64,000 bases of DNA from an uncultured delta proteobacterium (GTDB taxonomy: Bacteria > Desulfobacterota > Binatia > UBA9968), in assembly GCA_963804165.1 (NCBI GenBank), contig CAWDPO010000023.1:192001-256000 (forward strand). Reading direction: 5' to 3'. This document shows, piece after piece, positions 3,018 to 13,269 of this stretch (positions are counted from its first letter, which is position 1; each line of letters starts with the position of its first letter). Made by a program: the position numbers and the translations under genes. Under the pieces are notes generated by a model that ran no database searches, was not told the DNA's origin, and worked only from the letters and a program-made list of their open reading frames with translations.

Positions 3018-3683
3018 CTAGTGCACGCGGATTTTCTTCGCCGCTTCAATCCCTAGCGAAAACGCATCCTCGCCTACTTTCAATGTCATCATGCCGAGTG
3101 AAGGCGCGACGTCGAGGACGTGCACCTTGGCGCCGGGCCGCATGCCGTGCTCTTGCAGAAAACTGAGCAATCGAACGTCACGTTCACCGCCTTCAGTGAT
3201 GAAATCAAGCTCGACGCTCTGACCGTCCGGCGCTTCATTCAACGGAATGGTCTTCTGCGAGGGACCCGATAGTGCCCCCGGGATAGGATTCCCGTGCGGA
3301 CAGGTAGTCGGATTACTCAATAATTTGGCCAGCCGTTCTTCCACATCCTGGGATATCGCGTGCTCCAAACGGTGCGCCTCCTGGTGTGCCTTCACCCAAT
3401 CGAGTCCGAGCAGATCGGTGAGAAACCGCTCGGTCAGGAAGTGCCGCCGCACAATCCTTTCTGCCACCGTCTTGCCGTCGGACGTCAGATGGATCTCCTT
3501 GCGGCGATTGATCGTCACATAGCCTTCCCGTGCCAAACGCTGCAGCGTCGTAAATATGGTGGACGGAGAAACCCCCGTTTCCGCCGCGATGCGCGCTGCG
3601 ATCACCGGCTGGGACTCCTCGGCGAGCTGGTAAATGGACTTGAGATAATCCTCTAAAGCGTTACTTACTTTGGGCACTTCCAT
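3018..3683 (-). CDS. DtxR/MntR-family metal-dependent repressor with C-terminal FeoA domain
   Basis: EDYLKSIY HTH, RRHFLTERFL, EAHRLEH, CPHGNPIP. Confidence 0.95.
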   Translation of the reverse strand: MEVPKVSNALEDYLKSIYQLAEESQPVIAARIAAETGVSPSTIFTTLQRLAREGYVTINRRKEIHLTSDGKTVAERIVRRHFLTERFLTDLLGLDWVKAHQEAHRLEHAISQDVEERLAKLLSNPTTCPHGNPIPGALSGPSQKTIPLNEAPDGQSVELDFITEGGERDVRLLSFLQEHGMRPGAKVHVLDVAPSLGMMTLKVGEDAFSLGIEAAKKIRVH

Positions 3684-3687
3684 AGCG

Positions 3688-3718
3688 TTGACAAACTTTT
3701 TTCTTTCGACTATACGAA
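3688..3718 (+). promoter_or_regulatory. Sigma70-type promoter for the phnDCE-ftr1 operon overlapping a DtxR-like palindrome
   Basis: TTGACA (3688-93), 17 nt spacer, TATACG (3711-16); palindrome TTCG-ACTATA-CGAA (3705-18) next to the divergent DtxR gene. Confidence 0.5.
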
Positions 3719-3825
3719 CTTTTGACTTTGCCATAACGAAAGTATTAAATTGTTTATATATTAACAATGAATCACACAAACCTCTTATAGTAAAGATGAC
3801 TATTTAGATCAAGGGAGAACTCGCC

Positions 3826-4761
3826 ATGAAAGAAATCTTCAAACGCGTCCTAGGATCGCTGCTCATTTTTGCCGGTGGGGCATTCCTGCCGGACTCCAGC
3901 TCCGCGCAAAATAAGCTGGTGGTCGCGATTCAGCCCACCGTAGCGAGCGACGAGATGCTCAACAAGGCCAAGCCCTTGCAGCAATTTCTTGAAAAGGGCT
4001 TGGGCGGCAAAACCAAGGTCGAAATCTACGTGCCGACCAGTTACGCCGCCGTGGTGGAGTCGCTCCGCTTCGGCCACGCGCACCTGGCCTTCATGTCGGC
4101 ATGGCCGGCGCAGCTCGCGGTACGGCTCGGCGGCGCCGAAGTCGCTCTGGCGGAGATCCGGCAGGTGCTGCACGGCAAGGAGAAAGTCGAGGCACCGCAC
4201 TATTTTTCTTATTGGGTCGTTGCTCCCGACTCGCCCTACAAAGACCTGCAATCGTTAAAAGGCAAGAGCGCGTGTTTTCCCAGTCCGATCTCGACCTCCG
4301 GTTTCGTCGCGCCGATCGGCCGTATGATCGAAATGAATTTGTTGCAGCCGGGAGAAGGCAAAGAAGCCGATCCCAAAGCCTATTTTAAGGAAGTTCTGTT
4401 CGGCGGCGGCTATGGCCAGTGCTGGCAGGCGCTAAAGCAGGGCCAGGTGGACACCACGGTGATCGCCGGCGACGTGCCCGAGAAGCTTTATAATGAAGTC
4501 CTCGCCGGCACGCGCACGGTCGAGCAGCAAGGGCCGATCCCGTCCCACGCAGTAGTGCTCAGCAAAGAGCTGAAGGATCCTCTGCGCACGCAAGCAGTGC
4601 AGACCATCGTAAAGCTCGGCGCGCCCGAGCACCGCGAGCTCATGCGCGCGTTTATTTCCAGCATCTTCGTCGGCTTTAAGCCGACTACAGCAAACGAGCA
4701 TCTCGGCTCACTGCAAAAGTATCTGAAAGCGGCCAACCTGAAGTTTACGGAGCGTCTGTGA
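3826..4761 (+). CDS. phnD: Phosphonate/phosphate-type ABC substrate-binding protein
   Basis: Signal peptide, SYAAVVESL, STSG motif, PIPSH; followed by phnC/phnE-like genes. Confidence 0.85.
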   Translation: MKEIFKRVLGSLLIFAGGAFLPDSSSAQNKLVVAIQPTVASDEMLNKAKPLQQFLEKGLGGKTKVEIYVPTSYAAVVESLRFGHAHLAFMSAWPAQLAVRLGGAEVALAEIRQVLHGKEKVEAPHYFSYWVVAPDSPYKDLQSLKGKSACFPSPISTSGFVAPIGRMIEMNLLQPGEGKEADPKAYFKEVLFGGGYGQCWQALKQGQVDTTVIAGDVPEKLYNEVLAGTRTVEQQGPIPSHAVVLSKELKDPLRTQAVQTIVKLGAPEHRELMRAFISSIFVGFKPTTANEHLGSLQKYLKAANLKFTERL

Positions 4762-5507
4762 CATCAAACAGCGACACCGCTCCCGCTCTCCAAGCGGATC
4801 GAGTTTGGTTCGCGTACCGTAACCGCGATTGGGTACTGCGGGATGTGTCGCTGTCGATTCCAGCGGGTCAACACACCGTCATCATGGGTCCCTCGGGCAT
4901 GGGAAAGACGACTCTGTTGCGCGTGCTCGCCGGAATACTGAAACAGACGCAAGGCGGAGTGAGAGCTTTCGGCCAACCGGTTCACACACTCAGCCGGCGT
5001 CCGTTGAGCTCTTTGATCGGCTACATCCCGCAGCAGTTGGGATTAGTAAGAAGTCTCTCGGCGCTCGACAATGTTTTGATGGGCTCCCTCGGCCGGATCG
5101 GCGACGGTAAAGCGCTCTTCGGTCTGTTCCCGCGCGCGGAAACGGACCGGGCCGAGGCCGCGCTCGACATGATGGGCATCGCGCATAAGCGCTCCGAACA
5201 GGTTTTTCGTCTGAGCGGCGGCGAGCGCCAGCGGGTCGCCATCGCTCGTACCTTGCTCCAACATCCGCGGATCGTGATCGCCGACGAATTCGCGTCCGAC
5301 TTGGATCTCGCTCTGGCGTCGGAGATTCTCGCGCGCATCCGGCGCGCCGCCGACAAGGAAAATATTACCTTCGTTATGAGCATGCATCGGCTCGGCCTGG
5401 CGCGCCAATTCGGCGACGACGTTCTCGCGCTCAAAGACGGCGAGATCGTGCCGGGCTTTATCGGCAACGAAATGCTCGAGACGCCGCGACCTGAGGTGGG
5501 TTTGTGA
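4758..5507 (+). CDS. phnC: Phosphonate-type ABC ATP-binding protein
   Basis: Walker A GPSGMGKT, LSGGERQRVAIAR, IADE. Confidence 0.88.
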   Translation: MTSNSDTAPALQADRVWFAYRNRDWVLRDVSLSIPAGQHTVIMGPSGMGKTTLLRVLAGILKQTQGGVRAFGQPVHTLSRRPLSSLIGYIPQQLGLVRSLSALDNVLMGSLGRIGDGKALFGLFPRAETDRAEAALDMMGIAHKRSEQVFRLSGGERQRVAIARTLLQHPRIVIADEFASDLDLALASEILARIRRAADKENITFVMSMHRLGLARQFGDDVLALKDGEIVPGFIGNEMLETPRPEVGL

Positions 5508-6271
5508 AAGCAACTCTAGTCTTGCCCGCAACCACCGCCCTCTTCTTGCTCGCCGTGCTGGCGCATCTTGGCTTTTTCGACTTGGAGCGCCTCGCGCGCG
5601 GCGTGCGCAATTTGGGCATCCTCGGATCGGAGATGTTGCCGCCGGACGTGGGCATCCTGCCGACTGTTGGCGCCGCTTTGTGGGAGACCGTGGAAATGTC
5701 GTTCGCCGGCACGCTCCTCGGCTTCCTGGCGTCACTGCCGCTGAGCGTTCTCGGCACCCGAAGATTATTTTCTTCATGGGTTTCAAGCTTCGCCCGTTTC
5801 ATCGCGGCGGGTATTCGCACCGTGCCCGTCCTGCTGTGGGCGATCATCTTCGTCATCCTCGTCGGCCTCGGCCCGCTGGCCGGCACCTTGGGCATCGCCG
5901 CTTACACCGTCGGGTATCTTGCCAAGATTTACGCGGATCTTTTCGAAGGCACCGATCCGGAGATTATCGAGGCGGTTCAAAGCACCGGCGCATCCAAGCT
6001 CCAACTCGTCCGCTTCGTGATCCTCCCCGAAGCGGCCAATGCGGTACTTGCCCAAGTGCTCTTCATGCTCGAGTACAACATTCGCGCGTCGTCGGTGCTC
6101 GGCTTTGTCGGCGCCGGCGGACTTGGCTTCGTCATCCAAATCTATTTGCAAAGTTTGGACTATCAACGGCTGGCAACGATTTTATTGTTGGTGCTGGTGA
6201 TCGTGCTCGTGATGGACGGCATCAGCGCGTGGTTGAGAAAACGCTTTCTGTTGTCAGCCCAAGCATCATGA
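5504..6271 (+). CDS. phnE: Phosphonate-type ABC permease
   Basis: GLGPLAG and EYNIRASSVLGFVGAGGLG PhnE signatures. Confidence 0.9.
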   Translation: MKATLVLPATTALFLLAVLAHLGFFDLERLARGVRNLGILGSEMLPPDVGILPTVGAALWETVEMSFAGTLLGFLASLPLSVLGTRRLFSSWVSSFARFIAAGIRTVPVLLWAIIFVILVGLGPLAGTLGIAAYTVGYLAKIYADLFEGTDPEIIEAVQSTGASKLQLVRFVILPEAANAVLAQVLFMLEYNIRASSVLGFVGAGGLGFVIQIYLQSLDYQRLATILLLVLVIVLVMDGISAWLRKRFLLSAQAS

Positions 6272-6274
6272 TCC

Positions 6275-8305
6275 ATGGAAACTCGATCGCATCGAACGGA
6301 CTCGCTCCAAACCCTCGGGCGGTGCTCCAACCAGAAAATCGGTGACGCCGGTAGAATCGGCAAGCTTGTCGCGGTCGTTTTAGCGGTAGTCTTGACGCTG
6401 TTGACCGCGGTAGCCACGGCCTCTGCGCAAGATCAAGCGCGGCGTCTGGTCGCGTTGTTGGACTATCTGGGCGGCGATTATCAAAACGCGGTCCAAGACG
6501 GCAAGATCATCAATCCGGATGAATACGCCGAGATGCAGGAGTTCTCAAAGCGCATCCTGGAGCTCATGGGTCAACTTAAGGCGGTTGAAAAAGTCGACAA
6601 AGCCCAAGTCGAGCCCACGCTCAAATCCCTGGTGAGCGAAGTCGGAAAAAAAGGCGATGTAAAAACCGTGGCGACGCTTGCCAATGACGCCAAGGAAAAA
6701 CTGATCGCCGCCTACAAAATCGTCCCGCATCCGCGCCAACTCCCATCCTTGGCCGACGGGCGAAAACTCTTCCTCGAAAATTGCGCCCAGTGCCACGGCG
6801 ACAGCGGCAAGGGCGACGGCCCCGGCCGCGCATCGATGAATCCAAAAACACCACCGCCGGCGAATCTAATCGATGCGGGTTTCATGGCCGGCTTGTCACC
6901 TTTCAAGGCCTATAACACGGCTACTTTCGGCATCGATAACACCGCCATGGCATCTTTCGCCGCTTTGTCGGACGATCAACGCTGGCAGGTTGCTTTCTAC
7001 GTCATGTCCCTGCGCTTCTCGCAAGAGCAAGCCGCGCTCGGCGAAACGTTAATTCAGGAGAAAAAGATAGCTCCCGAGCTAACCGCCGTAGCGACTCTAG
7101 CGACGCTTTCCGACGATCAGCTGACCGAGAGGCTCACGAGCTACTTCGAGCAAGAAGCGCCGCGCAACAATGCCCTCGCATATCTGCGACGCGGGCTGCT
7201 TGAGAAGAAACCCGCGGATCCGCTCTTAATTGCCCGCAACCTGCTCGGCGAGGCCTCGGAGCTGTACGGCAAAGGTGAAAAGGAAAAGGCCTATCAGAAG
7301 GCGATTGAGGCTTATCTTGATGGCTTCGAAATGGCCGAGCCCGCGCTGTTCGCCAAGGACGCCTCCTTTGGACGATCCCTCGAAGACCAGTTCACCCAAT
7401 TTCGCAACTCCATCCGGCAAGGCATAACCCCGCAGGAGCTCGAAAAACAGCGCACGGAGATCGAGGCCAAGCTAGACCAAGCCTCACAGCTCATGACTCG
7501 CAGTGATAGCTTTTCGGGTTACTATGCCTTCGTCAATTCGGCGTTAATCATTTTGCGCGAAGGGCTGGAGGCCGCGTTGATCCTGGCGGCGATCGTCGCG
7601 ATGCTCAAAGTGATGGGCGCGGCAGACGCTATCCGTTATATCCACTTCGGCTGGATCCTTGCGTTGCTCGCCGGAGTGCTGACTTGGCTTGCGGCTCAAA
7701 CCGTATTGACTTTCAGCGGCCAACACCGCGAGAGCTTGGAGGGGTTCATCTCGGTCTTTGCGGCCGTGGCTCTTTTCTATGTTGGATATTGGCTGCACAC
7801 CCGGAGTGAGGCCAAACGTTGGCAATCATTTATTCAACAAAAAGTGCAGAACGTGCTTTCCAATCGGAAAATTCTCGGGCTCGTCGGCATCTCGTTCTTC
7901 GCTGTCTACCGGGAAGCCTTTGAAGTTGTACTTTTTTACCAGGCACTCTGGCTACAGAACGAAAGCAGTCACCAGGCCATTGTCGGCGGTTTCGCGGCAG
8001 GCGTCATTGCTCTAGTAGCAGTGACTTTTGCAATCTTCAAGCTTGGATTGCGCCTACCGCTCAAATACTTCTTCGGGGTCACGGGCACGCTGCTGTACAT
8101 CATGGCGTTCATTTTCGCCGGTACCGGCATCAAAGAACTCCAAGCGGCAGGTTGGGTGCCAAGCACACCTTTGAAATTTCCACCGCAAGTACCTCTCGTG
8201 GGCATCTACCCAACCGTCGAAACCTTGGCAGCCCAAGGACTCATGGTTTGCGCCTTCATCGCCACTACAGTTTGGATGGCGTACGAGCGAAAGAAGACCG
8301 CGTAG
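6275..8305 (+). CDS. Cytochrome c / FTR1-family iron permease
   Basis: Heme motif CAQCH, two RExxE motifs (REGLE, REAFE) and a TM domain; exact start uncertain. Confidence 0.93.
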   Translation: METRSHRTDSLQTLGRCSNQKIGDAGRIGKLVAVVLAVVLTLLTAVATASAQDQARRLVALLDYLGGDYQNAVQDGKIINPDEYAEMQEFSKRILELMGQLKAVEKVDKAQVEPTLKSLVSEVGKKGDVKTVATLANDAKEKLIAAYKIVPHPRQLPSLADGRKLFLENCAQCHGDSGKGDGPGRASMNPKTPPPANLIDAGFMAGLSPFKAYNTATFGIDNTAMASFAALSDDQRWQVAFYVMSLRFSQEQAALGETLIQEKKIAPELTAVATLATLSDDQLTERLTSYFEQEAPRNNALAYLRRGLLEKKPADPLLIARNLLGEASELYGKGEKEKAYQKAIEAYLDGFEMAEPALFAKDASFGRSLEDQFTQFRNSIRQGITPQELEKQRTEIEAKLDQASQLMTRSDSFSGYYAFVNSALIILREGLEAALILAAIVAMLKVMGAADAIRYIHFGWILALLAGVLTWLAAQTVLTFSGQHRESLEGFISVFAAVALFYVGYWLHTRSEAKRWQSFIQQKVQNVLSNRKILGLVGISFFAVYREAFEVVLFYQALWLQNESSHQAIVGGFAAGVIALVAVTFAIFKLGLRLPLKYFFGVTGTLLYIMAFIFAGTGIKELQAAGWVPSTPLKFPPQVPLVGIYPTVETLAAQGLMVCAFIATTVWMAYERKKTA

Positions 8306-8509
8306 ATGCTGAAGCGAGAACAAGATGCGCGACAGGATGCGGTTTTGGCCGTCAGGAATGATGATAGCTTGCGCTGTTGCTGCGGCAGTCTATTGGCCCG
8401 GCTGGTACCAGCTGGCGTAGAGCTCAAGTGTCGGCGCTGCAAACGACAAATTATCATTCCATTGACCGAAGCAAGGTTGCGCGAAAAATCCGCCGGAGGC
8501 GGTTCATAG
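8306..8509 (+). CDS. Small Com-like zinc-ribbon protein
   Basis: LRCxCGSLLAR...VELKCRRCK pattern like the phage Mu Com family; abuts the FTR1 stop codon. Confidence 0.7.
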   Translation: MLKREQDARQDAVLAVRNDDSLRCCCGSLLARLVPAGVELKCRRCKRQIIIPLTEARLREKSAGGGS

Positions 8510-8613
8510 GGGGCGCTGCAGAATAATCTGCAGCCCTGGTTAAATATAATAAACGAATAACTTTCTGTAACTTGGAAGTTATTATTCGTATCTACTAATT
8601 TGTCTAGTTAGGC

Positions 8614-8642
8614 TTGACAAATAATTATTATTTGAATATACG
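8614..8642 (+). promoter_or_regulatory. Promoter with Fur/PerR-like operator upstream of the exbBD-tonB operon
   Basis: TTGACA (8614-19), 17 nt spacer, TATACG (8637-42); perfect palindrome CAAATAAT-T-ATTATTTG (8618-34) with ATAATnATTAT core. Confidence 0.65.
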
Positions 8643-8673
8643 ACACTAGTCAGCGGCCAGCGATCCAGAATCC

Positions 8674-8725
8674 AGAGCCCGGCGTTGCGCAGAACATTCT
8701 GCAGCGCTCCGGGCTTTTTTATTTT
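8674..8725 (+). terminator. Intrinsic terminator within the 5' leader (attenuator candidate)
   Basis: GCCCGG (8677-82) pairs with CCGGGC (8709-14), inner stem, then TTTTTTATTTT; lies between the promoter and the RBS of the 8740 ORF. Confidence 0.7.
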
Positions 8726-8739
8726 GTACGGAGGTCAAG

Positions 8740-8952
8740 ATGCACGACGTCAAATCACGCGAAGGCAGATGGTCGGTTTCACTTTGTAACTGCAGTCAAG
8801 ATACCGCTCATGTTCACTACGGCAATGTCGTTCTGCATATCCTGCGTGACGATCTGCGCGAGTTGGGGCTTGCGATGCAAAGTGTGGCGGAGGGGCTCGA
8901 ACAAAGAGACGGGCAAAATTTCTCGGCGCTCAAGAAAGGTTTGGTTCAGTAG
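8740..8952 (+). CDS. Small Cys/His-containing hypothetical protein, first gene of the TonB operon
   Basis: GGAGG RBS; CNC..HVHYG motif; abuts exbB. Confidence 0.7.
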   Translation: MHDVKSREGRWSVSLCNCSQDTAHVHYGNVVLHILRDDLRELGLAMQSVAEGLEQRDGQNFSALKKGLVQ

Positions 8953-8954
8953 TC

Positions 8955-9563
8955 ATGGCACATATCGTTTCCATTATCGTCAAAGGCGGGGTCGTGATGA
9001 TCCCTCTCCTCGCCTGCTCCTTGATCTCGCTCGCGCTCACCATCGAGCGAATCATGTTTTGGACCAAACTGAAGTCGAAAGACGTTCTCCAGCAAATCTT
9101 GTCATTGGTCGAAAATGGCGAATTCGAACAAGCGCTGAAGTTGGGTAAGACCTCGAGCCAGCCGATCGCGCGTGTTTTAGCCGCTGGCATCGCGCACCGT
9201 AATCCGGCTCCGGCCAAGGCGATGGAAGCCGCCGCACAGGCGGAGATTCCCGTGCTCAAGAGCCGGCTTGGCGTTCTCGACACGATTGTCACGTTGGCAC
9301 CTTTGCTTGGCCTGCTCGGCACGGTCGTCGGTATGATCGGCTCGTTCGATGTCATGTCCGAAGCGGGCATGGGTCAGCCGCACGCCGTTACCGGCGGCGT
9401 CGCCGAAGCACTGATCGCAACCGCCACCGGGTTGTTGATCGCAATCCTAACCCTCGTCTCCTACAACTACTTCACCGCTCGGGCGGAACGGGAAATGGAT
9501 CGGATGGAGCATTTCAGCTCGTCGCTTGAATTGCAGCTCCACGAACACGCGGCGAAACATTGA
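8955..9563 (+). CDS. exbB: MotA/TolQ/ExbB proton channel
   Basis: APLLGLLGTVVGMI and EALIATATGL motifs. Confidence 0.93.
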   Translation: MAHIVSIIVKGGVVMIPLLACSLISLALTIERIMFWTKLKSKDVLQQILSLVENGEFEQALKLGKTSSQPIARVLAAGIAHRNPAPAKAMEAAAQAEIPVLKSRLGVLDTIVTLAPLLGLLGTVVGMIGSFDVMSEAGMGQPHAVTGGVAEALIATATGLLIAILTLVSYNYFTARAEREMDRMEHFSSSLELQLHEHAAKH

Positions 9564-9976
9564 TGCGCATCCAACGCCGCAGCATAAAAAAGGCGCGTAT
9601 CGAGATCATCCCAATGATCGACACGATCTTTTTCTTGTTGGTCTTTTTCATGATCTCGACCCTATCGATGAGGCAATTTAGGGGCATGCCGGTCAATCTT
9701 CCCAAAGCGGCCTCCGGCCAGCAAGCACCCGCCGAGAGCGCGTCGATCACGATCACCAGAGAAAGCCAGATCTTTCTCGACAAACAGGCGGTCGACAAAA
9801 CGACCCTTGGCAATCTTTTGCGCGCGCAACTCGTCAAGAATCCCGATCTCTTGGTCGTCATTAACGCCGATGACGGCGTTGAGCATGGCCACGTCGTTGA
9901 AGTCATGGACATCGCCCGGGGCGCCAACGTCGCCAAAATGGCGATCGCGGTAAAGCCGAAGGAGAAGAAAGAATGA
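9560..9976 (+). CDS. exbD: Biopolymer transporter ExbD
   Basis: IIPMIDTIFFLLVFFM, VNLP and INAD motifs. Confidence 0.93.
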   Translation: MMRIQRRSIKKARIEIIPMIDTIFFLLVFFMISTLSMRQFRGMPVNLPKAASGQQAPAESASITITRESQIFLDKQAVDKTTLGNLLRAQLVKNPDLLVVINADDGVEHGHVVEVMDIARGANVAKMAIAVKPKEKKE

Positions 9977-10800
9977 GCGATCGTTGGATCATCTCGTCAT
10001 TTACTGCTTCATCGCTGATTCATTTGGGGCTAATTCCGCTGGCGGCATTGGTCATGCACGTCAAACCGATCAAGCCAATCACCGTGCCCATCGAATTGGT
10101 CGACGTGCCACGAATCGAGGAGCCGAAGAAAATCGAAATGACACCACCGCCTTCGCGGCTCCAACACCCAAACCAAAAAACATAACTGCGCCAAAACTCC
10201 TGTCCAAGCCAGTCCTCGAAACCAGTCGACTGCCACCGACTGGCAACACTAAGGAGGAAATTAAAGAGAAACCGATCGAAGAACCGCCCCGATGGCTTCA
10301 TTGCCGGACAACACCGGCGCCGCCAAGGCAGGATGGAACCAGGGTCGAAGGCAACCGAAGCCGAAGGCAGCGCTGCCGGGGCCGGCAATCTTTTTGGCAA
10401 AGGCGACATCGGCGTGGTGGTGGCACCGGCGTCGAGGGCGGTGGCGGGGGAAAAGGCGCGCGGGATTGGGACGAGGCGAGAAGGGCGACGGCACTGGCGG
10501 GGGTGTCGGCACGGTGAAGCGCTTTCCGGGCTGGCCCGGCCCCTCGGCGGCTATCAAGTCAAGCCGCGCTATCCGGAGTCCGCACGAAGGGCGGGCGTGC
10601 AGGGCGTGACAACGTTACGTGTCCGCGTCCTCGAAAACGGCCGAGTCGGTGAAGTCCTCGTCGATCAATCCGCCGGATTTCGCGACCTGGATGTTTCCGC
10701 GATAGAAGCGGTCAAAAAATGGCTTTTCGAGCCGGCGCGTCGCGGCAAAGATCCGGTGTCGGTCTGGGTGATGCTTCCGGTGAAGTTCGAGCTGCATTAG
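9973..10800 (+). CDS. tonB: Energy transducer TonB (frameshifted in this sequence)
   Basis: TM anchor with SxxxH, Pro/Lys-rich linker and C-terminal YPESARRAGVQG...WLFEPA domain are spread over several frames. Confidence 0.85.
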
Positions 10801-10821
10801 CATGCCCATGGGAGACATCAA

Positions 10822-11000
10822 TTGTCCATTGCGTCAATAAACAACCGGGACTTTCGAGCGATATCGCGTCAACTGAAAAAAAGCCACGCATCGAAAGCAA
10901 CAATTTATTTCAAGGAAATAGCGAAGTCGTCATCGTGCACAAAAACAAAGAATACAACTTGCGAATCACGAAAAACGGCAAGTTGATTTTGACGAAGTAG
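10822..11000 (+). CDS. hemP: Hemin uptake regulator HemP/HmuP
   Basis: C-terminus LFQGNSEVVIVHKNKEYNLRITKNGKLILTK is the HemP signature; probable TTG start at 10822 with GGAG RBS and an extra A in the A7 run near 10876. Confidence 0.85.
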
Positions 11001-11062
11001 AAAAAGACAAGGAGTCACGCAAACCTTTGGGGAGGTCGTGAAGAGTATTTTGTAGGTTGAAA

Positions 11063-11099
11063 GCCAGCCAGCGTGTGAGGCGACTCATGCCAGCCAGCG
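11063..11099 (+). promoter_or_regulatory. Putative HmuP-responsive leader element: GCCAGCCAGCG direct repeat around a GNRA hairpin
   Basis: Repeats at 11063-73 and 11089-99 flank the stem GTGTGAG-GCGA-CTCATGC, just before RBS GGAGGA of the receptor gene. Confidence 0.65.
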
Positions 11100-11124
11100 A
11101 AAATTTACACCATTGGAGGAACAC

Positions 11125-13269
11125 ATGAGTCGACAAGAGAAACGTGCGAATGAAAGGCGGGTGCGCAAGGCGTTAAGCAAAATCAGTCTCGCCGCCGGCG
11201 AAGGAGTGGGCCGGGCGGTGGCGTTTTCGTTAACGCTGGCGAGCAACGCCTTTGCGGCAGAGCCGAAAAAGGAAGAAACCTTCACGCTCCCGCCAGTGGT
11301 CGTGCAAGACCAAGGCAGCCCCTATGTCGTGCCGGAATCCTCGCTAACCAAGTTCCCGGTGCCGCTGAAAGACACGCCGCAATCGATCACGATCATTCCG
11401 GAAAAACTCGTCGAAGAACAAGCCGGCACAACACTGCGTGACGCGCTGCGCAACGTGCCGGGCATCACTGCCACCGCCGGCGAAGGCGGCGGCGCGCAAG
11501 GCGACGTTTTCACACTAAGGGGATTCAATGCCCGCAACGACACGTTTATCGACGGCGTGCGCGATTCCGGCTCCTATTTTCGCGATGCGTTCAATTTCGA
11601 ATCGGTCGAAGTGCTGAAAGGTCCCTCTTCCACCTTCTTTGGCCGTGGTTCCACCGGGGGCATTATCAATCAGGTGAGCAAGGTTCCCCGCCTGGATCCC
11701 AGCTACGAGGGCATTTTCAGCAGTGGAGCCGGCCCGCTCTTTCGCAGCACCATGGATGTCAATCAACCGATTCCGCAACTGCTGCCCAATGCGGCCGTCC
11801 GCGTCAACCTCATGGCCCATAGAGACGACGTCGTGGAACGCGACAAGATCGAACTCAGACGGCTGGGCTTTGCACCGTCGATCGCCTTCGGGCTCGGCAC
11901 GCCGACGAGATTACGCTGAGCTACCTTCTCCAGCATGAAGACAATATTCCGGACTATGGTTTCCCCTATCTTAACGGCGCACCGCTGCGCGTCCGCCGCG
12001 ATACGTTCTTCGGTCTCACCAAGGAGGACCATGAACGCACGTTGGTCAACATCGGTACGCTGCGACTGGATCACCGCTTCAACGACATCTTCAATCTGCG
12101 CAATACGTTCCGCTACAGTCACGTCGATCGCGATTCGGCGGTGACCAATGCCACCGCGGTTCTTCCGAACACACTGAATCGGAGCCGACCCCAACGCGAC
12201 ACGCAAGAAAGCATTCTAAGCAATCAGACCGATCTCGTCGCCAAGTTCGACACCTATGGTTTCAAACACACGGCGACCACGGGTTTGGAAGTATCGCGCG
12301 AAACCTTCGACCTGGTGCGCTGGGCGAGCACCGGTCCCAATACCACGATCAACGATCCTGCCAACAATCAGGCGCCGAACGCGAAAACCTTGGCTGCAGA
12401 CTCGGATACGCGCGCGATCGGTTATGGGATCTATGCTGCGGACCAGATCAAGTTAAACGAATATTTCGATATCGTCGGCGGTGTGCGCTGGGACTATTTC
12501 GACACCGACGTGAAAGATGACTTTCTCAACGACAAACGAAAACAAATCGACAAGATGTGGAGTTATCGGGGCGGACTGGTCTTTCACCCGACGCCGTCTC
12601 AGAGTTATTATTTTTCTTACGGCACTTCGTTCAATCCATCGGCCGAGGGCATCGCGCTGAGTCCCGCCACCAACGGCACGCCGCCGGAAAAGAACCGGAT
12701 TTTCGAAGTCGGAGCCAAACTGGAGTTTTTTCAAGGCGCGCTCAGTCTCCAGAGCGCGGTATTCCGTATCGACAAGACTAACGCACGCACGCCGAATCCA
12801 ATTGACGATACATTGCCCAACGTAGTGACCGGTAAACAGCGCTCACAGGGATTCGAAGTGGGTCTGAACGGCCGCCTGGCCCCCGGTGTGAACGTATTTA
12901 CCGGTTATACGTTTCTCGATACGGAAATTCTCAAAGATACGGCCACGGCTAACATTGGAAATGAAATCTCCAACGTGCCGAGACACAGCGCGACGCTTTG
13001 GACCACCTACGATTTTCTAGAAAAATGGCAGGTCGGCGGTGGTCCGACCTATGTCGGCAGCCGCTACTCGAATAATGCGAACGCTAACCGTGTCCCTGGA
13101 TTCGTCCGATGGGATTCAACGATCGCGTACCAGATCACTCAGGAATATTCAGTTGCGGATCAACGCAATTAATCTCACGAACCAGCTTTACTTCGACAGC
13201 ATCTCGGGATCGAAAGCCGTGCCGGCTGCCGGTCGCACATTCCTCGGCAGCGCGAGCTTTAAGTTCTAA
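11125..13269 (+). CDS. TonB-dependent siderophore receptor (Fiu/PiuA-like), two frameshifts
   Basis: Plug motifs DTPQSI, LRNVPGIT, EVLKGPSS; beta-barrel; terminal Phe (...ASFKF); frame changes near 11910 and 13145. Confidence 0.92.

Follow-up and report, generated by a model that had tools for sequence, protein, structure and literature searches.

A Com-like gene and a conserved RNA box within an iron-uptake cluster

The DNA analysed here (the window) is a stretch of 64,000 nucleotides (nt) from an uncultured delta proteobacterium of the Binatia (assembly GCA_963804165.1, contig CAWDPO010000023.1, positions 192,001 to 256,000) and it holds an iron-uptake cluster, recognised by Pfam matches and inspection of coordinates, which runs from 3021 to beyond a TonB-dependent receptor gene at 11113-13172 (Table 1). 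Within this cluster com67, a gene for a 67-amino-acid Com-like zinc-ribbon protein, follows a cytochrome c-FTR1 fusion iron permease gene so closely that the permease stop codon TAG abuts the com67 ATG, a junction of the form ..ERKKx-stop-ATG that is kept in 12 of 16 loci from the genus. A spacer of 230 nt separates com67 from orf70, a conserved 70-amino-acid open reading frame (ORF) lying directly before exbB, exbD and tonB, and this spacer contains a G+C hairpin, a promoter, a CCAG-rich stretch and a strong hairpin followed by TTTTTTATTTT. A prediction made from the sequence alone had described the Com-like gene, promoter, leader, terminator and exbB-exbD-tonB, all of which were found where it had placed them, and had proposed that the protein binds tandem ATCCAGA repeats in the leader and blocks termination, possibly sensing iron or zinc through its Cys site; neither the permease junction nor orf70 was part of it. 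The CCAG-rich stretch proved to be a conserved RNA box of about 27 nt, which is described below together with the protein.

com67 encodes a remote homologue of Mu Com

A profile of 15 sequences of the com67 family matched the Com protein of phage Mu (sequence from record NC_000929) with an hhalign probability of 95.4% and an E-value of 1.8e-8 over 33 columns at 42% identity, spanning both zinc knuckles, and this bears out the Com relationship that had been predicted. The protein has five Cys residues (RCCCG...KCRRC), of which four (C24, C26, C42 and C45) are invariant in the 15 homologues, as are L22, R23, G27 and the run G37-V-E-x-K-C-R-R-C-K-R47, and the tails are variable. An AlphaFold2 model gave a core at residues 21-57 with three strands (predicted local distance difference test scores of 79-90) and two disordered tails; with this core and the invariant Cys residues, com67 has the four-Cys zinc ribbon of the Com family. 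Judged by profile and model, com67 is a remote homologue of Mu Com that lies outside the curated Pfam family.

Foldseek of the AlphaFold model against the PDB found no match at E<=0.001, the best and uninformative ones (E 1.7-3) being zinc domains of aspartate transcarbamoylase regulatory chains and the aIF2-beta zinc ribbon, and the com67 profile against PDB sequences, among which there is no Com structure, gave weak C1-domain matches alone (E 0.45 and above). com67 matched no Pfam model, neither com67 nor its Myxococcus xanthus homologue matched an NCBIfam model, and tblastn of com67 against 50,697 phage records returned just one chance match, in a helicase gene. The family is a large one, with 976 proteins at E<=1e-3 among 1504 candidates, and many of these relatives carry the Joint Genome Institute name "phage FluMu protein Com", with NCBI labels that are mostly "Candidatus Binatia bacterium".

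The Com-like gene and the box are found together

Searching by DNA in 40 relatives gave matches in 14, all in the genus of the window (14 of 24 genomes), and in 0 of 16 genomes that belong to two further families of the order. A strong match to the gene itself (E<=1e-20) was obtained in 20 of 31 genus genomes, and 19 of these 20 have a box less than 400 nt downstream on the same strand; ten genus genomes are without the gene and nine of them are also without the box, the other (G001) having a dubious long-loop match which is likely to be chance. The box pattern matched 39 times in the genus, of which about 10 look like chance, compared to 3 matches for a reversed control. The genome from which the window comes (81% complete, 7.5 Mb) has one gene and one box by both model and pattern. 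The box was therefore rejected as a multi-copy small RNA or a mobile repeat, since there is one copy in the 7.5-Mb genome and the others are within clusters.

Further afield the distribution is patchy, with the gene present in 5 of an even draw of 300 genomes from the phylum (E<=1e-8). A scan of one genome per species for GVE[IL]KCRRC yielded 183 stretches; 181 could be confirmed, and 79 loci were retained. These are labelled as Binatia and "delta proteobacterium" metagenome-assembled genomes (MAGs), with a few MAGs labelled Acidobacteriota, Nitrospirae and others, and they include the cultivated Myxococcota Myxococcus xanthus, other Myxococcus, Corallococcus, Pyxidicoccus, Hyalangium and Sorangium. 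With a covariance model made from the genus, 40 of the 79 loci had plus-strand matches at E<=1e-4, 48 in all. In 39 cases the match was no more than about 400 nt downstream of the gene, and the other nine were in the same cluster at 0.7-4 kb downstream or, once, upstream; high-G+C Myxococcus-type loci were missed by this model. A loose pattern matched at least once in 68 of the 79 loci. Seven of its matches were dropped as chance (G+C-rich and more than 300 nt from the gene, the only match of L055 among them), and a second pattern contributed true sites for L051 and L063 as well as a proper site for L094, four far-upstream chance matches being removed. The box thus follows the gene in about 69 of the 79 loci, including those of Myxococcus, Corallococcus, Hyalangium and Pyxidicoccus, and the co-occurrence of protein family and leader element that the original prediction had put forward as a check holds within the genus and in the wider set.

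Two arrangements were seen. In type A, that of the window (11 aligned loci), a conserved promoter lies between gene and box, the transcript start is placed 5-10 nt before the box, which puts the box at the 5' end of the RNA, ahead of orf70-exbBD-tonB. In type B the box begins 30-70 nt past the com stop codon and is followed by genes for cupredoxin/Haem_bd, DUF6662, ApbE, FMN_bind or porin-like proteins. The next ribosome site is close behind the T-run in both types. Extra boxes without an adjacent gene were found 0.4-13 kb downstream in the same cluster and on the same strand, between sub-operons, giving four boxes in the cluster of G014 (L022, G014:C4:216000-235900) and two in that of G012. 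Among the multi-box clusters, a second com gene has a box shortly before it. A recurrent box GGCCAGCGGTCACGAACCCAGAGCC was also seen at the distal end of the cluster (9-13 kb downstream) in G003:C12, G004:C1 and G019:C34, and a Haliangium-labelled MAG (L092, 5157-5260) has tandem boxes GGCCAGAGACC..GTCCAGAGCC between the Com-like gene and siderophore biosynthesis genes.

The box is a short RNA element with a covarying hairpin

About 35 nt of the leader are 88-100% identical between genus loci, compared to 49-76% amino-acid identity for the flanking proteins. The 18 distinct genus copies (one of them from G005, unpublished) have in common AGCGGCCAG-M-G-R-TC-nn-GAA-Y-CCAGAGCCCGG, followed by a hairpin of variable sequence and a T-run. 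Across 59 distinct boxes, aligned in 30 columns, ten columns are invariant and the consensus is GGCC-MGMG, a 3-bp hairpin and CC-MGMG-CCC; the window hairpin is G8662-A-T / A-T-C8672 with its loop at 8665-8669. The Myxococcus-type box, GAGGCCCGAGGCC-nTT-GAGCCCAGCGCCC, is of the same design. Of the predicted tandem ATCCAGA, both copies are indeed present (8663-8676, with a further CCAG at 8657-8660), but they are not the conserved unit, being found in only 4 of the 59 aligned boxes; the first copy lies mostly in the variable hairpin loop and has two variable bases inside it. What is repeated is CCAGMG on either side of the hairpin, and it is this element which overlaps the 5' arm of a covarying terminator, so the predicted overlap stands with a different repeat.

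The structure tested for the box was an inner hairpin of 3 bp below which come a 4x4 internal loop (CAGM opposite CMGM) and an outer GGC/GCC helix; the search pattern behind the matches left the two variable pairs free but prescribed both the outer helix and the closing G-C pair. The inner hairpin covaries: pair 10-21 is GC in 39 boxes, AU in 9, GU in 9 and another combination in 1, pair 11-20 is UA in 39, CG in 16 and UG in 3, and 115 of 116 variable cells are paired, figures which overstate independence as the boxes are related sequences. None of 500 column shuffles equalled the observed pairing or covariation score, and sliding the partner by one column reduced pairing from 99.7% to 44-64%. 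The exchanges follow lineages, with U-A in the Binatia type, C-G in the Myxococcus type and A-U/C-G in Haliangium- and Nannocystaceae-labelled MAGs. A DNA operator was considered for the box and rejected; the 12 hairpin cells with G-U or U-G pairs, meaningful only for RNA of this strand, and the constant orientation to terminators indicate an RNA rather than a DNA element. It is not a catalogued one: in Rfam 15 nothing overlapped 8650-8725 at E<=10 (searched over 7800-9600), and nothing in four related loci reached an Rfam gathering score.

The box forms the base of an intrinsic terminator

A simple consensus scan found neither the promoter nor the terminator of the spacer, because the second promoter hexamer is without its final T and the terminator stem is bulged. 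Both are conserved. Among the 11 aligned loci of type A, TTGACA is invariant and TAnAC at 17 nt is kept in all 11, and a TTAGnnnnnnCTAA-like palindrome is conserved upstream of the promoter. Palindromes of the TTAG...CTAA type lie upstream of and over the -35 of this promoter, resembling what we take to be the operator consensus of DtxR/IdeR repressors, which fits the presence of a DtxR-like gene in the cluster.

Folding of 8640-8745 gave -39.6 kcal/mol (z = -3.4), and RNAalifold on the 18 genus sequences gave a consensus terminator of 12 pairs, five of them with compensatory changes. The 3' half of the box is the base (5' arm) of this terminator, its 3' word AGAGCC pairing in the genus sequences with GGCUCU or GGCUUU immediately before the T-run. 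When the box was forced to be unpaired (ViennaRNA), the six basal pairs were lost in 18 of 18 sequences at a cost of 10-21 kcal/mol (from -28.8 to -14.2 kcal/mol for the window terminator), leaving just an upper hairpin separated from the T-run by at least six bases. The stem of an intrinsic terminator must abut the U-tract, and since the box supplies the basal pairs an occupied box should disable termination. In loci of type A the next GGAGG begins 5-15 nt past the T-run, which leaves no room for a second promoter, and therefore exbBD-tonB must be read through the terminator. The layout is thus that of an attenuator, with the box sharing the 5' arm of the terminator and the downstream genes having no promoter of their own.

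Pairs of gene and box lie among iron-uptake genes

Neighbours were scanned as one upstream and up to two downstream ORFs on the same strand, which was possible for 78 of the 79 loci (no ORF for L058), counting the families FTR1, ExbB/D, TonB, TonB-dependent receptor, HmuY, HemS, FeoB, siderophore, Fur and DtxR. Iron-uptake or Fur/DtxR families were immediate neighbours in 66 of the 78 loci: 37 of 39 in a first batch (the misses being L063 and L071) and 29 of 39 in a second, where a siderophore monooxygenase in L092 and an imelysin in L093 were counted and the misses were L078, L090, L094, L096, L097, L103, L104, L105, L106 and L109, some of which are likely to be failures of ORF calling in high-G+C DNA. 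An FTR1 gene is directly upstream in 40 of the 78. In Myxococcus, Corallococcus, Hyalangium and Pyxidicoccus the order is gene, box, TonB-dependent receptor, HmuY and HemS, a haem uptake operon, and in six loci (L053, L086, L089, L099, L107 and L110) fur is directly upstream of the Com-like gene. In these six the box is next, followed by genes for DUF6662, a multicopper oxidase or ApbE.

RNA reads from a Myxococcus relative covered L069:4700-5900 (three raw-read runs, X21-X23, and a contig run, X1) evenly and in both orientations, at a depth of about 7-90 over the gene, the box and the receptor gene; neither starts nor ends piled up before 5785. These libraries look unstranded and one "RNA" contig was 62 kb long; no conclusion was drawn from them and they say nothing on regulation.

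Com-dependent antitermination as the proposed explanation of the locus

From the homology of com67, a box that is conserved, covaries and overlaps the terminator, the pairing across genomes and the iron context, taken together, we infer that the protein binds the box with read-through as the output, and Com-dependent antitermination inside an iron regulon is, on balance and with considerable room for doubt, the best explanation of the locus. The order of events would be as follows. com67 would be made from the end of the iron-repressed cytochrome c-FTR1 permease operon, and its product would recognise the two CCAGMG words around the 3-bp hairpin, which in the window would stand at the extreme 5' end of the transcript from the promoter at 8614-8642. 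With the 3' word of the box also making the bottom six pairs of the terminator stem, a box held by the protein would keep the terminator from closing beside the T-run, and RNA polymerase would then continue into orf70-exbB-exbD-tonB and the genes beyond; in the absence of the protein the leader would terminate. The iron signal would enter via DtxR/Fur-type repression of the promoters, and the protein would be a second gate, at the level of RNA, which couples expression of the TonB system to that of the permease operon.

The published properties of Com, as given in the passages on its RNA site in PMC6483171, make such binding plausible. Selection of RNA ligands with the Com zinc finger (SELEX, systematic evolution of ligands by exponential enrichment) gave GAG(N)2CC / CC(N)2-3GAG words, mostly in two parts and flanking a stem of 3-4 bp whose loop-closing pair is C-G; Com preferred the hairpin form and protected the GA dinucleotide; and the natural site adjoins a translation-inhibition hairpin of mom, which is proposed to melt upon binding (PMC6483171). 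The conserved words of our box resemble this CC(N)2-3GAG site suggestively, although the fit is not exact. The closest fit is in Myxococcota, where the box hairpin is GGC-C(N)TTGA-GCC, matching the published consensus exactly (PMC6483171), and the flanking words are CC-A-GAG or CC-CA-GAG.

The likeness to Com and mom extends to the arrangement, with a small four-Cys zinc ribbon with disordered tails encoded just upstream of its proposed target gene, and a proposed site in which a short hairpin and CC..GAG words stand immediately 5' of a regulatory hairpin that would open on binding (compare PMC6483171). The differences are that Mu Com is phage-borne whereas com67 is cellular and belongs to iron-uptake clusters, some with several boxes, and that the regulated hairpin here is an intrinsic terminator rather than the translation-inhibition structure of Mu. 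Chromosomal com homologues have been described directly before Pseudomonas genes for lectin-like bacteriocins, tailocin cargo and levansucrase, with a suspected regulatory role (PMC6240691). Those genes have other cargo (bacteriocins and glycosyl hydrolases), their proteins match the Pfam Com model PF10122, and the passages dealing with them in PMC6240691 describe no conserved terminator-linked RNA box. For the pair of Com-like gene and box, no description was found in literature on the Com family names, which led to bacteriocins only, and among the matches listed for Myxococcus Fur and haem uptake, for the motif words, where those listed were unrelated work on eukaryotes, and for zinc ribbon with antitermination and iron, nothing was relevant.

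BglG/SacY with their ribonucleic antiterminator (RAT) sites, HutP and the ANTAR proteins are protein-dependent antiterminators whose RNA site overlaps a terminator. The box likewise shares the 5' arm of its terminator, so that binding, which is proposed here, would exclude termination; com67 has no sequence relation to those proteins and Pfam found no CAT/PRD, HutP or ANTAR domain in it.

Several observations weigh against antitermination by a Com-type protein. com67 did not match PF10122 (Zn_ribbon_Com) at E<=0.1 and only 2 of its 15 relatives did so (best E 0.015), compared to 36.8 bits for Mu Com itself against a cut-off of 22.9, and the first knuckle of com67 is CxC where CxxC would be expected. 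The flanking words in the window have one spacer base (CC-A-GAG) where the Com consensus has 2-3, and the Binatia hairpin loop is UC-NN-GAA closed by U-A, compared to CC..GAG for Com (PMC6483171). The outer GGC/GCC helix and the closing G-C pair are invariant and were also prescribed by the search pattern, so covariation does not bear on them and they are only putative. The free box is far weaker than the terminator, and therefore read-through would need tight binding during transcription. One genus genome (G045) has the gene and no match to the strict box pattern. Finally, the Myxococcota versions are without a T-run terminator, and the M. xanthus leader folds no better than its shuffles (z = 0.13), so another mechanism, perhaps at the level of translation, must operate there.

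Bacterial iron uptake is taught as repression by Fur or DtxR together with small RNAs. If the antitermination proposed here is correct, it appears that an RNA-binding zinc finger of phage type has been recruited in addition, through an RNA site that is short, well defined, covarying and placed on terminators between the sub-operons of iron-uptake clusters. For the Com-type proteins, which are known mainly from one phage system, it would mean a role in cells and a natural consensus for their target. As the pair is present before the haem receptor operon of M. xanthus, a soil bacterium that is cultivated and genetically tractable, the idea is directly testable.

Alternative explanations

The protein may bind the box and yet act on translation or on the stability of the messenger, with the terminator merely ending an operon or a leader RNA. 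Mu Com is itself a translational activator of mom (PMC6483171), and the Myxococcota keep the box without a T-run and have a Shine-Dalgarno GGAGGA in or beside the G+C hairpin. We regard this as unlikely. In the window the ribosome site lies outside the hairpin, and all 18 genus sequences, together with most of the 48 model matches, have the box fused to a canonical terminator to which it gives the basal pairs.

The box and terminator could instead be a small RNA, either transcribed from an iron-repressed promoter of its own or derived from the 3' end of com mRNA, which pairs with other mRNAs through a seed in its conserved 5' part in the manner of RyhB-like iron-sparing RNAs, the Com-like protein being a chaperone or a mere neighbour. 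The anatomy of type A is that of a small RNA gene, with a start 5-10 nt before the box and a terminator about 70 nt later, and the type B element is a 3' untranslated region of com. However, the ribosome site 5-15 nt past the T-run, with no promoter between, requires read-through for exbBD-tonB, a single-stranded seed has no need of a covarying hairpin, and the boxes are confined to these clusters, with one in the genome of the window. A small RNA seems rather unlikely to us, although it and antitermination can both hold.

The original prediction also suggested that the protein may sense iron or zinc through its Cys site; were the Cys4 site to bind the metal reversibly, RNA binding itself would report metal status. 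Carried further, the Com-like protein might itself be an iron sensor (holding Fe(II), an Fe-S centre or zinc according to supply) of which one form binds the box; it would then be a bacterial counterpart of the eukaryotic iron regulatory proteins and iron-responsive elements (IRP/IRE), acting on terminators across whole clusters from Binatia to Myxococcus. The family lies almost solely beside iron-uptake or Fur/DtxR genes (66 of 78 loci), six times directly after fur, and this speaks for such a role. Nothing found here supports sensing by the Cys site, though, and in Mu Com the four Cys residues hold a structural zinc (PMC6483171). The repressor genes and operator-like sites of the clusters already explain a response to iron, so the signal comes more simply from transcriptional control of the DtxR/Fur type, and we consider a sensory role for the Cys site improbable.

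That the box is a small riboswitch or protein-independent attenuator sensing a metal or metabolite, with the Com-like gene as a co-regulated passenger, is quite improbable in our view. A conserved 5' structure that shares a strand with a terminator is how riboswitches are classically laid out, but the conserved part, only some 27 nt with a hairpin of 3 bp, would make a small ligand pocket, its words are like those of the known Com site (PMC6483171), and one small protein of RNA-binding type accompanies the element very closely (in 19 of 20 genomes and in about 69 of 79 loci), over different phyla and differing downstream genes.

HemP/HmuP (ChuP) is another small protein of iron and haem operons, which acts after initiation on a leader word before a TonB-dependent receptor gene, and its HmuP-responsive element (HPRE) upstream of chuR contains GCCAGCCAGCG (PMC9131926). 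The parallel is that of a small iron-cluster protein with a conserved leader word, and the window carries both pairs, the hemP one at 10719-11100. HemP is nevertheless of an unrelated family without a Cys ribbon, no HemP domain is present in com67, the box is unlike the GCCAGCCAGC-type leader word, and the HPRE differs in its word (GCCAGCCAGCG) and has no terminator overlap in its description in PMC9131926. That the box should be the target of such a protein encoded further down the cluster is very improbable indeed: GCCAGCCAGCG has CCAGCG in common with the box and hemP is in the window (compare PMC9131926), but the window has its own GCCAGCCAGCG pair right after hemP, and hemP was found in 14 of the 79 loci (13 close matches and a weak one, L051), and not in Myxococcus-type loci, against about 69 for the box.

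Features of the window cluster

The coordinates of the cluster are collected in Table 1. The repressor gene at its head is divergent from the remaining genes, and the same gene heads the clusters of G012 and G014. orf70, the first gene past the terminator, was found by tblastn at 69-76% identity in nine further locus records representing seven distinct places; it matched no Pfam or NCBIfam model, and the ESM Atlas gave just unnamed clusters from Binatota, Myxococcota and Acidobacteriota. Past tonB come, in order, hemP, the TonB-dependent receptor, a PiuC-like hydroxylase, DUF3016 and a PepSY_TM-flavodoxin protein.

Table 1. Features of the iron-uptake cluster, by position in the window
Feature	Position	Strand	Details
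DtxR/IdeR-type iron-dependent repressor with FeoA domain	3021-3779	-	Fe_dep_repr_C 7e-30, Fe_dep_repress 2.5e-13, FeoA 7.9e-13
Binding-protein/ABC transporter set	3826-6271		
Cytochrome c-FTR1 fusion iron permease	6275-8305	+	Pfam FTR1 8.7e-29, Cytochrom_C 1e-11
com67, 67-amino-acid Com-like zinc-ribbon gene	8306-8509	+	
G+C hairpin directly 3' of com67, without T-run	8511-8537	+	fold
Promoter region	8585-8642	+	palindrome TTCGTATCTACTAA 8585-8598, TTAGG 8608-8612, TTGACA 8614-8619, TATACG 8637-8642, 17-nt spacer
RNA box, about 27 nt	8654-8680	+	GGC 8655-8657, CCAGCG 8657-8662, hairpin, CCAGAG 8672-8677, GCC 8677-8679
Intrinsic terminator	8674-8725	+	stem 8674-8717, G+C core 8677-8714, T-run 8715-8725
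GGAGG	8730-8734	+	ribosome site ahead of orf70
orf70, conserved 70-amino-acid ORF, first gene past the terminator, before exbB	8740-8952	+	
exbB	8955-9563	+	Pfam MotA_ExbB 1.2e-32
exbD	9560-9976	+	Pfam ExbD 9.8e-31
tonB	9973-10800	+	Pfam TonB_C 1.7e-21
hemP	10719-11000		

Some minor observations concern these genes. Both tonB and the TonB-dependent receptor gene (11113-13172) are split over two frames in this assembly, by either sequencing errors or real breaks, both being possible. The two GCCAGCCAGCG copies that follow hemP are at 11063-11073 and 11089-11099, just before the receptor gene, and hemP with the paired GCCAGCCAGCG word was also seen in L034, L040, L049, L054, L071, L085 and L111. 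The hairpin directly 3' of com67 has a 20-nt word (85% identity) in common with the upper part of the terminator at 8689-8708, and the arms at 8510-8531 and 8689-8710 are 86% complementary.

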